From Dehalococcoidales bacterium (GTDB lineage Bacteria; Chloroflexota; Dehalococcoidia; Dehalococcoidales; RBG-16-60-22): a stretch of 64,000 nucleotides of DNA. The stretch covers positions 323 through 64,322 of the forward strand of contig DAOULO010000052.1 of assembly GCA_034420195.1 (NCBI GenBank), in the 5' to 3' direction. Position 1 is the first letter of the stretch. The number at the start of each line of letters is the position of its first letter. Made by a program: the position numbers and the translations under genes. Under the pieces are notes generated by a model, which made no database searches, had not been told where the DNA came from, and worked only from the letters and a program-made list of their open reading frames with translations. Shown piece after piece: positions 54,347-56,386 of the stretch.

Positions 54347-55053
54347 CCAAGTTTCAGGGTTTTCCCACCCGGATGGAGTTCACCGCCGTCCCCAATCTCT
54401 TCTTCAGCGGCCTGCTCCCCCACGTCGACGACCTGGCCGAGCTGAAGACGACGCTGGCCGTCATCGCCGCCATTTATCGTAAAAAAGGCTCACCGCGCTA
54501 CGTGAGCTTGAGCGAGCTTAGGGGCGACGCCGCCCTGATGCAAGGACTTAAAAGTATCGGGAAAGAGCCGGAGGCGACGCTGGAGGCAGCTTTGAAAATG
54601 GCGGTGGGGCGGGGCACGCTGCTCCGCCTGGGACTGGAGGGGAAAGACGGCGCCGAGGAAGTCTATTTCCTCAACGACGCGCCGGGTAGGCAGGCGGTAG
54701 CTAAAATTGAAAGCGGGGAGATTAAGCTCGGCGGGATGAAGGCGGTGCGGCCGGTAGAAACGACCGGGGAGCCGCCGGATATCTTCACCCTTTATGAGGA
54801 GAACATCGGCCTGCTGACGCCAATGGTGGCCGACGAGCTAAAACTGACCGAAAAGACCTATCCCGCCGCCTGGCTGCGCGATGCCATCAAAGAAGCGGTT
54901 TTACATAACAAGAGAAACATCAGGTATATCACCAAGATTTTAGAGAACTGGTCGGCGGAAGGCCGGAGCGATGGAACACATCAGCGAGATACTCAAAAGG
55001 CAGACCCGGACAAGTACATCAAAGGCAAATACGGGCACATGGTCCGCCGCTGA
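54343..55053 (+). CDS. dnaD: DnaD-domain replication initiation/primosome protein
   Basis: C-terminal FTLYEENIGLLTPMVADEL...IKEAVLHNKRNIRYITKILENW matches the DnaD/DnaB_2 domain. ATG 54343 overlaps the dnaB stop (ATGA); the upstream part of track ORF 54067 is rejected. Confidence 0.75.
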   Translation: MTKFQGFPTRMEFTAVPNLFFSGLLPHVDDLAELKTTLAVIAAIYRKKGSPRYVSLSELRGDAALMQGLKSIGKEPEATLEAALKMAVGRGTLLRLGLEGKDGAEEVYFLNDAPGRQAVAKIESGEIKLGGMKAVRPVETTGEPPDIFTLYEENIGLLTPMVADELKLTEKTYPAAWLRDAIKEAVLHNKRNIRYITKILENWSAEGRSDGTHQRDTQKADPDKYIKGKYGHMVRR

Positions 55054-56386
55054 GGCGGACGAAGCGCCCCCCGCCTCCCCGGAATGCCCCGTCTGCAAGG
55101 GGGCCGGTATCGTGCATCCCCGCCTGCCCTCCGGCGAGCCGGACTACAGCCGGGCCGTCCCCTGCCGCTGCACCAAAAAAGAGCAGAAGGGCGAGCGCCA
55201 GGAGCGGCTGAAACGCTACAGCAATCTTGGCTCCTTGGTGCGCTTTACCTTCGCCAATCTGGAGCCGCGCGGCAAGAGCGGCCATCCCCGCGCCCAGGAG
55301 CAGTTCCAGCGCGCCTGCGAGGCCGCCAAGGCCTTCGCCAGCGAACCCAAAGGCTGGCTGGTGCTGGGCGGCCCCAGCGGCAGCGGCAAGACCCACCTGG
55401 CGGCGGCCATCGTCAACGAGACCATCAGCCGGGGCCAGCCGGCCCTGTATATCACCGCCCCCGACCTGCTCGACCGCCTGCGCGCCTCCTTTGGCCCTGA
55501 CAGCGAGACCCCCTACGACGAGTTCTTCGAATCGGTGCGCGCCGCCCCTCTGCTCGTCCTCGACGACCTGGGGGCGCAGTCGGGCACGCCCTGGGCGCGC
55601 GAGAAGCTCGACCAGCTACTGACCTCGCGCTTCAACAGCGAGCTGCCGACGGTCATCGTCACCGTTAAGCCCGTTGAGGAGATGGAAGAGCGGCTGCGCA
55701 CCCGCCTCACCGACCCGCGCCTCTCGCAGGTATACATCCTCGAAGAAGATAAACCCACCGAGGAGTACGCCTGGGGGCCTGAGTTCGCCCTGCAGAAGGG
55801 GATGACCTTCGCCAGCTTCGACCGGCGACGTAACCTGCCCCCGGAGCAGCAGGAGAACCTGGACTGGGCGCTGGAGGCCGCCCTGAATTTCGCCAAGAAC
55901 CCGGAGGGATGGCTGGTGTTTATGGGCTTTACCGGCAGCGGCAAGACCCACCTGGCGGCGGCCATCGTCAACTACCGCTACGAAGCCGGCCAGCCCGCCC
56001 TCTTCGTGGTGGTGCCTGAGTTCCTCGACCACCTGCGCTCCACCTTCGGCCCGGAGAGCAAGGTCTCCTACGACGAGCTTTTCGAGAGCGTCAAGACGGC
56101 GCCGCTATTGGTGCTGGACGACTTCGGCGAGCAGTCCACCACGCCCTGGGCCAAGGAGAAGCTCTACCAGGTGCTCAACTACCGCTATAACGGGCGGCTG
56201 CCCACGGTGATTACCACCCGGCACTCGCTGGATGAAATCATCGAGAAGTTCGATAGCCCGGTCTCTTCGCGGCTGGCCGATAAGAGCATCAGTGTGCCTT
56301 TCAACATCACCGCGCCCGATTACCGCAGCGACGTGACCCACAACCGCAAGAAGACTTCTTCCAGCCGGAAGAGCAAGAGGTATTAG
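54971..56386 (+). CDS. helicase-loader ATPase with two tandem DnaC/DnaI-type AAA+ modules and an N-terminal Cys4 element
   Basis: Module 1 (about 55223-55744): [17 protein letters not shown]...LLVLDDLG. Module 2 (about 55802-56305): [16 protein letters not shown]...LLVLDDFG. N-terminal CPVCKGAG...CRC. The only ATG start overlaps dnaD by 83 nt. Confidence 0.8.
   Translation: [471 protein letters not shown]

Follow-up and report, generated by a model that had tools for sequence, protein, structure and literature searches.

A DnaC/DnaI-type helicase loader with an AAA+ module duplicated within one chain, predicted across the Chloroflexota

The window analysed here, a stretch of 64,000 nucleotides from a Dehalococcoidales bacterium, encodes a 471-aa protein that, judged from sequence, is a real, phylum-wide variant of the DnaC/DnaI helicase loaders in which the AAA+ module is duplicated within one chain. 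To our knowledge, all described loaders have one AAA+ module per polypeptide, as the first-pass annotation of this DNA also assumed. Consistent with this, the best 80 viral relatives are all single-module, and a search of the literature on tandem or duplicated helicase loaders, including the supplements of PMC5109545, found nothing relevant. On balance we consider it probable that the protein is the chromosomal DnaB loader of Chloroflexota, belonging to the DnaC/DnaI/IstB branch, with an AAA+ module that was duplicated long ago and that now provides two positions per chain. Coordinates of the features discussed below are given in Table 1.

Table 1. Features of the loader gene and its operon (positions within the window).
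Feature	Position	Strand	Details
Promoter-like site	52108-52135		ahead of rplI
rplI (ribosomal protein L9)	52166..52966	+	first operon gene; ORF call and synteny in relatives
dnaB, replicative helicase	52970..54346	+	458 aa; TIGR00665; Pfam DnaB and DnaB_C
DnaD-domain protein	54343..55053	+	236 aa; Pfam DnaB_2, 34.8 bits; TIGR01446, 39.1 bits
Shine-Dalgarno-like GGAAGG	54957..54962	+	8 nt upstream of the loader ATG, within dnaD codons (..EG..)
Tandem-module helicase loader CDS (predicted)	54971..56386	+	471 aa plus stop; ATG start
Dual-coding overlap, dnaD tail and loader N-terminus	54971..55053	+	83 nt; loader frame is dnaD frame +1
Conserved N-terminal helix	54980..55003	+	aa 4-11; conservation, and helix 4-11 in the AF2 model
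4-Cys zinc knuckle	55085..55171	+	C39-x2-C42 ... C65-x-C67
AAA+ module 1	55247..55756	+	aa 93-262; profile matches, Foldseek to DnaC and DnaI
40-nt tract in module 1 (Walker A)	55378..55417	+	identical to 55933-55972 in module 2
Inter-module linker	55757..55801	+	aa 263-277; conserved motif W268-G-P-E-F-x-L-Q-K
AAA+ module 2	55802..56326	+	aa 278-452; profile matches, Foldseek to DnaC and DnaI
Basic disordered C-terminal tail	56327..56383	+	pLDDT < 50 (AF2)

Domain architecture and internal duplication

The internal duplication noticed in the first-pass annotation is clear at both the protein and the DNA level. BLASTP of aa 1-265 against aa 266-471 pairs aa 93-252 with aa 279-441 at 53% identity (87/164, E = 4e-58), and at the DNA level the two modules share 71% identity across 343 nt (E = 1e-41), a similarity that chance would not produce. 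The first copy had been placed from aa 85 on; its opening TFANLE peptide begins at aa 93. The 40-nt identical tract is the longest found among 84 loci (median 14 nt), and its length was reached by none of 300 synonymous shuffles. The domain scan proposed as a check on the first reading finds that each half separately passes the Pfam cutoff for IstB_IS21 (53 and 50.6 bits; cutoff 24.1) and also that for Bac_DnaA.

The modules are joined by a linker in which W268 and Q275 are invariant and E271, F272, L274 and K276 are each conserved in at least 90% of homologues (alignment A1). Inter-module gaps are short across the family, mostly ~15-30 aa. AF2 monomer models built with 45- and 95-sequence alignments place the modules at pLDDT 90-97, with a dip in pLDDT at aa 260-270 and a helix at aa 270-276 in the linker. 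The pTM is 0.50 with both alignments, and thus no defined packing of module 1 against module 2 is predicted. The basic character of the C-terminal tail persists in the homologue consensus.

The N-terminal helix is followed by a Thr/Ser-rich disordered linker (about aa 9-37; AF2 pLDDT < 50 for aa 8-37) and then by the zinc knuckle. C39, C42, C65 and C67 of the knuckle are invariant in homologues (alignments A1 and A3), and the AF2 model shows beta-hairpins within this region (aa 47-64). By analogy to DnaI, the knuckle is presumed to be the helicase-binding domain. The cysteine element recognized in the first-pass annotation is real, but its proposed resemblance to the zinc domain of DnaI is not supported, as no homology of the N-domain to DnaI-N or DnaC-N was detected in Pfam (no DnaI_N match) or the PDB at E <= 10. 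The zinc module of DnaI is reported to involve C67, C70 and H84 (PMC1636449). The two elements may be analogous at most.

Operon context and translation start

The loader gene is the last of an rplI-dnaB-dnaD-loader operon and is co-transcribed with dnaB and the dnaD-like gene. Profile matches to the genes upstream, TIGR00665 for the dnaB product (486.9 bits; cutoff 385) and TIGR01446 for its neighbour, agree with the dnaB-dnaD-loader cluster described initially. The DnaB of this operon is presumed to be the client of the loader. The dnaB and dnaD genes share 4 nt at the dnaB stop, and the DnaD-domain protein ends in a conserved C-terminal tail, DPDKYIKGKYGHMVRR. The gene order plsX-trx-trxB-rplI-dnaB-dnaD-loader is kept among the loci of relatives and across classes, with the rplI slot filled by Ribosomal_L9_N/C genes in loci L001 and L003. 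In all loci inspected, dnaB and the loader share one operon. In addition to rplI, dnaB and dnaD, the neighbours of the loader in the window include hydrogenase-like genes on the opposite strand. GC content is uniform across the loader region.

The 83-nt overlap reported between dnaD and the loader is exact, as counted from the ATG at 54971 to the dnaD stop at 55053. An overlap of 80-89 nt occurs in 59-64 of 83 loci, and a Shine-Dalgarno-like tetramer, mostly GAAGG, lies <=20 nt upstream of the start in 64/64 loci with such an overlap. The N-terminal peptide of the loader is conserved in about 60 of the 83 loci. The start codon, regarded at first as uncertain, can now be settled: the N-terminal peptide and the overlap are both conserved throughout the phylum, which supports ATG 54971 as the true start. 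The public 424-aa call of this loader is truncated. Many database entries are similarly mis-started, with 424- to 441-aa calls that lack the conserved N-terminus and, in some cases, part of the zinc knuckle. The loader is probably translationally coupled with dnaD via the conserved ~83-nt overlap. A programmed frameshift that would fuse DnaD to the loader was considered but seems unlikely: the loader frame stays open for just nine sense codons ahead of the ATG, and there is no sign of a slippery site.

Catalytic and DNA-contact residues

Roles of individual residues were assigned from PMC8213410, with E. coli DnaC as the reference (ssDNA contacts K143/F146/S177/Y179; sensor I Asn203; sensor II Arg237). 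As first reported, Walker A and Walker B motifs are intact in both copies. Walker A is GPSGSGKT at 134-141 (K140) in module 1 and GFTGSGKT at 319-326 (K325) in module 2. Walker B is LVLDD at 195-199 (D198/D199) and 380-384 (D383/D384). Also present in both modules are the Arg-finger (R245 and R434) and counterparts of the ssDNA tetrad (R171/F174/T206/W208 and R356/F359/T391/W393).

Other positions differ between the modules. The Arg-coupler is R241 in module 1, and a proline (P430) occupies this position in module 2. Module 2 has the sensor-II Arg (R452), which module 1 lacks. The sensor-I Asn is absent from both (V232 and R417). In E. coli DnaC, the sensor I, sensor II and Arg-coupler residues are individually required for ATPase activity, and the Arg-coupler, four residues upstream of the Arg-finger, has been called essentially invariant in DnaC/DnaI (PMC8213410). 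The full five-residue hydrolysis set of E. coli DnaC is complete in neither module of the window protein. Thus, of the initial description of two complete loader modules in one chain, the two modules hold up but their completeness does not.

Across the family (n = 171 members), the core residues are nearly always retained in module 1 and module 2, respectively: Walker A Lys in 100 and 100%, Walker B Asp in 100 and 98%, Arg-finger (R or K) in 95 and 96%, tetrad Arg in 96 and 96% and tetrad Trp in 98 and 98%. Family-wide, the Arg-coupler is found in 82% of first and 57% of second modules, the sensor-I Asn in 46 and 8%, and the sensor-II Arg/Lys in 56 and 85%. The commonest pattern is a fully canonical module 1 (N-R-R-R) with a module 2 that lacks the sensor-I Asn.

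Distribution and evolution in the Chloroflexota

The tandem architecture is conserved across several Chloroflexota classes. Both modules lie in one ORF in 83 of 84 loci from independent assemblies generated by many projects; the remaining locus is interrupted by the end of its contig. The survey of the phylum suggested in the first-pass annotation therefore finds two modules in all 83 uncut loci. At least 338 loci were confirmed in species-representative genomes, and more than 100 protein clusters (50% identity) are two-module. The two-module records are named as Dehalococcoidia, Anaerolineae, SAR202 and others, including Longilinea, Bellilinea and Anaerolinea MAGs. Every Chloroflexi genome surveyed previously has exactly one dna[CI] gene and no dciA (Brezellec et al., PMC5109545).

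Single-module lineages also occur. In these, module 1 has been deleted and the N-domain and module 2 are kept (clusters P0167, with 44 members, and P0195, with 27); residues 85-271 of P0167 are 80% identical to module 2 of locus L021. The existence of these natural deletion lineages indicates that two modules are not obligatory. Proteins with three and four modules (P0122 and P0121) are rare singletons and could be artefacts.

A neighbour-joining tree of 365 modules separates first and second modules in part, with 93/171 and 92/171 in clean clades. Nineteen alignment columns discriminate module 1 from module 2 in the close group, none of which is common to the distant group. Greater identity between orthologous than between paralogous modules is clear above ~45-50% identity and gone below ~40%, and across the Dehalococcoidales/Anaerolineae split this signal is modest (78% of pairs). 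Concerted evolution may blur it. A single origin of the duplication is likely from these comparisons but unproven, because the orthologue signal is modest and is lost at low identity. Module 1 of the Dehalococcoidales is the fastest-diverging part (identity 0.454 between first modules vs 0.512 between second modules), and in the clade of the window protein there are many more invariant positions in module 2 than in module 1.

Comparison with known systems

The best NCBIfam profile for the protein is PRK08116 (NF005992), a DnaC-like family, with 224.7 bits only when both modules are summed (cutoff 189); neither half reaches the cutoff by itself (105 and 124 bits). A Chloroflexota single-module protein of this type, P0195 (281 aa), aligns to positions 16-261 of the 269-aa profile. 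It shares the N-terminal peptide and the CxxC knuckle with the tandem loader, and has one AAA+ module and an APDYR sensor-II tail. Structure searches with single modules found A. aeolicus DnaC (3ECC; TM 0.80, rmsd 2.8 A), S. aureus DnaI (5HE9; TM 0.78) and E. coli DnaC (6QEL; rmsd 2.7 A).

With the E. coli and Aquifex aeolicus DnaC proteins (6QEL, 6QEM, 3ECC) the loader shares the initiator-clade AAA+ fold, Walker A and B motifs and Arg-finger, as well as the Arg-coupler (in module 1), the counterparts of the ssDNA tetrad and a genomic tie to dnaB. Unlike DnaC, which has one AAA+ module per chain, a helical helicase-binding N-domain and a sensor-I Asn, the window loader has two AAA+ modules, a 4-Cys knuckle and no sensor-I Asn in either module. 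It scores 124.2 bits against the DnaC equivalog NF005931 (cutoff 357).

DnaI of Bacillus and Staphylococcus (2W58, 5HE8/5HE9, 4M4W) likewise has an N-terminal zinc-binding element followed by an AAA+ module, and works with the co-loaders DnaD and DnaB(Bsu); the window loader gene adjoins a gene for a DnaD-domain protein. Foldseek comparisons of DnaI with the loader modules give TM 0.71-0.78. DnaI differs in having a single AAA+ module and a zinc module reported to involve C67/C70/H84, whereas the loader has a duplicated AAA+ module, four cysteines and a dissimilar N-domain. The score against the DnaI equivalog NF006505 is 123.5 bits (cutoff 228).

IstB, the helper protein of IS21 (5BQ5, 8Q3W), has a paralogous AAA+ module, and IstB_IS21 is the top Pfam family of the loader. 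The IstB equivalog NF038214 is matched at 123.5 bits (cutoff 200), and no istA transposase is adjacent. The Arg-coupler, present in module 1 of the loader, is absent from IstB (PMC8213410). Two AAA+ modules per polypeptide are also found in type II AAA+ proteins (p97/Cdc48, NSF, ClpB), but these form another clade (Foldseek TM 0.22-0.27, rmsd 14-20 A), whereas the module profiles of the loader are those of the initiator clade. Type II AAA+ proteins are stacked closed rings that thread substrates. Both loader modules contain the initiator-specific insert, which is typical of open spirals on DNA.

Proposed mechanism and alternative interpretations

The most likely function of the protein is that of sole chromosomal DnaB loader, with each chain giving two positions in the loader spiral. 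The zinc knuckle would dock on DnaB. Both modules would bind ATP and ssDNA, since the Walker A Lys and Walker B Asp are kept in each, as are the Arg-finger and the tetrad counterparts, and both would thus join the ATP- and ssDNA-dependent spiral that opens the DnaB ring. In the most economical geometry each chain would fill two neighbouring places of a six-position spiral, and so three chains would serve one DnaB hexamer, in keeping with the trimer-of-dimers symmetry of DnaB. Such a set of three covalent dimers per hexamer, as proposed in the first-pass annotation, is plausible.

In the Dehalococcoidales-type lineage of the window the two composite ATP sites are unequal. The site in the nucleotide pocket of module 1 has lost sensors I and II, and its presumed trans partner, module 2, has lost the Arg-coupler. 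In the site of module 2, sensor II is retained, and both Arg-coupler and Arg-finger would come from module 1. These residues suggest that one ATP site is largely structural and that the other is regulated and hydrolytic. A more detailed scheme is offered tentatively, and we think it somewhat unlikely to hold as a whole: three covalent dimers per hexamer would place a zinc domain at every second site, intra- and inter-chain ATP sites would be specialised (structural vs ssDNA-gated hydrolytic), and the dnaD overlap would enforce coupled, stoichiometric synthesis of adaptor and loader.

Among other interpretations, we regard as doubtful, though less so than the others, the idea that loading is the work of module 2 and the zinc domain, arranged in a canonical 6:6 complex, and that module 1 is a degenerate pseudo-protomer and not an equal member of the spiral. 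Module 1 might then be a cis-acting cap or auto-inhibitor of the oligomerisation face of module 2, or an adaptor for ssDNA or for DnaD/DnaA. The lineages without module 1, which keep the N-domain and a module of the second type, fit this idea, as do the faster divergence of module 1 in the Dehalococcoidales, the larger number of invariant positions in module 2 of the window's clade and the lack of sensors I and II from module 1 there. Throughout the phylum, however, module 1 retains its Walker residues without exception, and nearly always its Arg-finger and tetrad Arg and Trp, with the Arg-coupler in most members. A mere cap would need neither ATP binding, nor a trans-acting arginine, nor DNA-contact residues. 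Moreover, in the commonest pattern it is module 1 that is canonical and module 2 that lacks the sensor-I Asn. We consider it quite improbable that six chains bind each DnaB hexamer with their twelve AAA+ modules in a two-tier or extended assembly, like those of p97, NSF, ClpB or the IstB decamer. With a single helicase-binding domain on every chain, such an assembly would match the six loader sites on DnaB, and stacked tiers are usual for tandem AAA+ proteins. PDB entries for a putative ATP-binding protein (IstB) of IS5376 have 10 chains (8Q3W, described by Foldseek as ATP-bound IstB with duplex DNA) and 20 chains (8Q4D), and p97/Cdc48 chains match the loader over ~470 aligned columns. These p97 matches have a TM of ~0.25 and an rmsd of 14-20 A, however, so that the order of modules is common to both and their arrangement is not. 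The short linker suits neighbouring positions, and the initiator-specific helical insert with its ssDNA-contact residues is found in both modules. This insert favours a single open spiral, as in DnaA and DnaC, over closed stacked rings.

The succession of a DnaD-like "replisome organiser" and a loader is typical of phage modules, which could indicate an IstB-like helper for replication or transposition of a prophage or other mobile element that lies beside dnaB by chance. The top Pfam family and the phage derivation of dna[CI] genes (PMC5109545) point the same way. We nevertheless reject this very improbable reading: the IstB equivalog score is below its cutoff, no transposase is adjacent, synteny with core genes extends across classes in a region of uniform GC, the viral relatives are single-module, and the surveyed Chloroflexi have a sole dna[CI] and no dciA (PMC5109545). 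The chance that a frameshift joined two loader genes, or that a repeat was mis-assembled, is negligible. Beyond the a priori possibility, raised in the first-pass annotation, the rare three- and four-module singletons are all that favours an artefact. With DNA identity of only 71%, the copies have diverged too far for a collapsed or duplicated repeat in the assembly to explain them, and the uninterrupted ORF recurs in independent assemblies (every uncut locus) and in hundreds of protein clusters.

We also considered whether co-variation of motifs could assign which module completes which ATP site. Sensor I of module 1 co-varies significantly with the Arg-coupler of module 2 (odds ratio 4.5), but the same-module control is stronger (odds ratio 37). 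This approach was rejected as confounded by phylogeny. A further observation concerns the stoichiometry: with one helicase-binding domain per two modules, a 3:6 complex would leave half of the six loader sites of DnaB empty, which speaks against it.

Significance

What is known of bacterial helicase loading comes from the single-module proteins DnaC and DnaI, six of which assemble on DnaB, and from DciA, which is unrelated to them. Studies of the number and equivalence of loader ATP sites still rely on mutating all six together. The tandem loader is a natural system in which to determine the number of loader ATPase sites required by a replicative helicase, as each member of a pair of sites can be mutated on its own. 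This covalent tandem occurs throughout a phylum that includes the Dehalococcoidia (organohalide respirers and SAR202) and the Anaerolineae. In some lineages the sites have already been made unequal by evolution, and the single-module revertants are natural controls. A different stoichiometry, 3:6, is a further possibility raised by this architecture. Separately, the 80-89-nt overlap of dnaD and the loader gene provides a clean example of a long dual-coding and probably translationally coupled junction.

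Two AAA+ modules in one predicted loader protein

The loader is a 471-aa protein with an N-terminal domain, two AAA+ modules of the DnaC/DnaI/IstB type (M1, aa 93-262; M2, aa 278-452) and a short C-terminal tail. When the protein is split at residue 265, its halves share 87 of 164 positions (53%, E = 4e-58; aa 93-252 versus aa 279-441), and each half by itself scores above the Pfam cutoffs of IstB_IS21 (53 and 50.6 bits against 24.1) and Bac_DnaA. The whole protein gives two stretches each for the IstB_IS21, Bac_DnaA and NCBIfam DnaC, DnaI and IstB models. The first-pass annotation had described an internal duplication in one polypeptide, with Walker A and Walker B intact in both copies, and both points are confirmed; its description of the repeats also holds overall, except that the first starts at aa 93 rather than aa 85. 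Collapse or duplication during assembly was ruled out because the copies are far too diverged (71% DNA identity across 343 nt). The two-module ORF is not an artefact: both modules lie in one uninterrupted ORF in 83 of 84 sources, the remaining one being cut by a contig end.

Coordinates of features in the window
Feature	Position	Strand	Remarks
mtnA-like ORF (presumed)	18647-19774
OLD-family nuclease	20086-21726	+	546 aa
MTAP-like ORF (presumed)	21793-22662
rplI	52166-52966	+	upstream of dnaB
dnaB	52970-54346	+	TIGR00665, 487 bits
DnaD-domain gene	54343-55053	+	TIGR01446, 39 bits; immediately upstream of loader
loader ORF	54971-56386	+	ATG start, 471 aa
dnaD/loader overlap	54971-55053		83 nt; dnaD stop at 55053
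Walker A tract, M1	55378-55417		40 nt, identical to M2 tract
Walker A tract, M2	55933-55972		40 nt, identical to M1 tract
loader C-terminal tail	56327-56383		aa 453-471

AF2 predicts the same beta-alpha order for M1 and M2 (pLDDT 90-97, 95-sequence alignment). Foldseek matched single modules to Aquifex aeolicus DnaC (3ECC, TM 0.80, rmsd 2.8 A), Staphylococcus aureus DnaI (5HE9, TM 0.78), Geobacillus kaustophilus DnaI (2W58, TM 0.71), Escherichia coli DnaC (6QEL, rmsd 2.7 A) and IstB (8Q3W). By contrast, p97/Cdc48 has only the module order in common with the loader (TM ~0.25, rmsd 14-20 A).

Four cysteines of the N-domain (C39, C42, C65 and C67) are invariant in homologues and are placed on short beta-hairpins by AF2. 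No similarity to DnaI-N or another solved domain was detectable in Pfam or the PDB, so the proposed resemblance of the CPVC...CRC element to the DnaI zinc domain is at most an analogy. We infer that the four-cysteine domain binds the helicase. The C-terminal tail is predicted to be disordered (AF2) and is strongly basic, a character kept in homologues, and may provide an extra nucleic-acid contact.

Functional residues were mapped via a HMMER alignment to E. coli DnaC, in which their roles were established by Puri et al. (PMC8213410), and their frequencies were computed over 171 two-module proteins.

Functional residues of the two modules and their frequency among two-module proteins (n=171)
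Element (E. coli DnaC)	M1	M2	Residue counted	M1 frequency	M2 frequency
Walker A (K112)	K140	K325	Lys	100%	100%
Walker B (E170)	D198/D199	D383/D384	Asp	100%	98%
ssDNA tetrad (K143/F146/S177/Y179)	R171/F174/T206/W208	R356/F359/T391/W393	Arg	96%	96%
			Trp	98%	98%
Arg-coupler (R216)	R241	P430	Arg-coupler	82%	57%
Arg-finger (R220)	R245	R434	R/K	95%	96%
Sensor I (N203)	V232	R417	Asn	46%	8%
Sensor II (R237)	none	R452	R/K	56%	85%

This conservation suggests that both modules are equipped to bind ATP, to contact ssDNA and to supply a neighbour with an Arg-finger. The predicted hydrolytic machinery is unequal between M1 and M2 and partly non-canonical. In the commonest pattern M1 is fully canonical and M2 lacks only the sensor-I Asn; both modules are more degenerate than this in the Dehalococcoidales-type lineage of the window.

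Distribution and history of the duplication

Among the 120 top-ranking database homologues (66-100% identity), length varies from 421 to 481 aa. HMMER, run exhaustively over 1.84 billion cluster representatives, yielded 654 proteins at E <= 1e-30, and among the representatives listed more than 100 carry two full modules, down to ~35% identity. In one genome per GTDB species at least 338 loader loci were confirmed, and for the best 80 of these the match spans the entire query. By their record titles, homologues come from Dehalococcoidales, Dehalococcoidia, Anaerolineae, Anaerolineales, Ardenticatenaceae, Promineifilaceae, Tepidiformaceae and SAR202, and from Thermanaerothrix, Longilinea, Bellilinea and Anaerolinea thermolimosa. 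The best 80 relatives on viral contigs are all single-module proteins. Three singleton clusters, with four modules (P0121, 827 aa), three modules (P0122, 792 aa) and two modules 87% identical to one another (P0123, 564 aa), may be rare further duplications or assembly artefacts.

In 170 of 171 proteins, M1 is more similar to its closest M1 counterpart in a different genome than to the M2 in the same chain, and orthologous exceeds paralogous module identity in 86-100% of protein pairs at >= 45% identity. This signal is modest across the Dehalococcoidales/Anaerolineae split (78% of pairs) and is gone below ~40% identity. Judged by these comparisons, the duplication appears old, and it probably had a single origin. 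At Walker A the identical tract of the window gene exceeds that of every other locus in a set of 84 (median 14 nt), and its length was matched in 0 of 300 synonymous-codon shuffles, which hints at occasional intragenic gene conversion. In the P0167 cluster, which has 44 members and includes contigs as long as 531 kb, M1 is precisely deleted: the N-domain through 'YSNLGSL' is fused straight to an M2-type module, 80% identical to M2 of locus L021. The P0195 cluster (27 members) is single-module as well, and both clusters fall inside the two-module clade. Both lineages are best read as reversions to one module via precise M1 deletion.

Family placement and genomic context

The loader scores far below the equivalog cutoffs for DnaC (124 versus 357 bits), DnaI (123.5 versus 228) and IstB (123.5 versus 200). 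Its best profile is PRK08116 (224.7 bits, halves 105 and 124), whose cutoff of 189 is passed only because the two module scores add up. By profile score, it belongs to the DnaC/DnaI/IstB superfamily, outside every curated family, and the profile libraries searched hold no model for the tandem architecture. Public-database names of two-module proteins are generic ('ATP-binding protein', 'DNA replication protein DnaC').

The dnaB-dnaD-loader cluster proposed earlier is borne out by the profile scores of dnaB and the DnaD-domain gene. The core-gene context of the operon, plsX-trx-trxB-rplI-dnaB, is kept across classes, and GC content is even throughout the loader region. Brezellec et al. (PMC5109545) inferred a single domestication of a dna[CI] gene for Chloroflexi and tabulated one dna[CI] and zero dciA in Anaerolinea, Chloroflexus, Roseiflexus and Dehalococcoides genomes; they do not mention duplication of the loader. 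From the conserved operon, the uniform GC and the sole dna[CI] without dciA, we conclude that this is the predicted chromosomal DnaB loader of the Chloroflexota. Our search of the openly accessible literature found no paper on a two-module AAA+ helicase loader.

At two loci, L034 (4527-5885) and L067 (1708-4377), the loader lies directly 3' of dnaB and there is no dnaD-like gene. The L067 dnaB ORF of 889 aa suggests an intein-like insertion. L034 is labelled 'Proteobacteria bacterium', yet groups with Chloroflexota loaders, and is probably mis-binned or mis-labelled.

Start codon and overlap with dnaD

The loader ATG overlaps dnaD by exactly the 83 nt first reported. The accompanying doubt about the start was not borne out, as both the N-terminal peptide and the overlap are conserved. 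The peptide (...NT.TWS...CPxCKGAG) is kept in homologues at 66-77% identity. A looser version, M/V-E-x-[IL]-x-E-[IL]-L-[KR], extends across classes, and its start codon, ATG, GTG or TTG, does not shift in position. In the window no other ATG, GTG or TTG was found between 54971 and the zinc knuckle. An overlap of 80-89 nt in constant relative frame occurs in 59-64 of 83 loci, all with a Shine-Dalgarno-like GAAGG <=20 nt upstream made by conserved dnaD Glu-Gly codons.

Opposite the conserved DnaD tail (KYIKGKYGHMVRR in Dehalococcoidia, RYIEGEYADYIEH in Anaerolineae) the loader has a Thr/Ser-rich stretch that is predicted to be disordered (AF2, aa 8-37, pLDDT < 50), and the conserved N-terminal helix of the loader faces a DnaD segment that varies. 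A separate conserved segment in each frame is the signature expected if the junction is truly dual-coding and translationally coupled, and dnaD and the loader are presumably coupled in this way.

The public call for the window gene (P0001, 424 aa) starts at V48 (GTG), drops the first CxxC and is wrong. Other calls of 424-441 aa (P0002, P0003, P0042 and others) likewise start downstream, at V48 GTG or around the CxxC; all lack the conserved peptide, and the 424-aa calls also lack the first CxxC. The call at L003 starts after dnaD (436 aa), yet the peptide is in frame upstream. This widespread, systematic mis-annotation, which we attribute to the overlap, is corrected here.

Proposed mechanism

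We propose that M1 and M2 would both enter the spiral, dependent on ATP and ssDNA, by which DnaB is opened. In the simplest arrangement each chain would fill two neighbouring positions, so that a hexamer would take three chains. The trans-acting arginines, ssDNA residues and initiator-type helical insert of both modules and the short linker between them speak for a shared spiral, as does the three-fold (trimer-of-dimers) symmetry of DnaB. Its certainty is reduced by the undefined packing of M1 on M2 (AF2 pTM 0.50 in both runs), the presence of one predicted helicase-binding domain per two modules, the natural single-module lineages without M1, and the canonical hydrolysis residues missing in the window's lineage. 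The main rival reading leaves the canonical job to M2 and makes M1 a regulatory pseudo-protomer; we regard it as plausible, with about one chance in four. Specialists in replication should find this natural covalent tandem of moderate-to-good interest, because it offers a way to dissect the asymmetry of loader ATP sites and the stoichiometry of the loader.

Elsewhere in the window

An OLD-family nuclease, with an AAA_15/AAA_21 ATPase and an OLD-like TOPRIM domain, is encoded in a sharply low-GC island (0.42 versus ~0.63). From their translations, we take the flanking ORFs to be mtnA-like and MTAP-like. The OLD-family gene appears to be of defence type and to have been gained by horizontal transfer.
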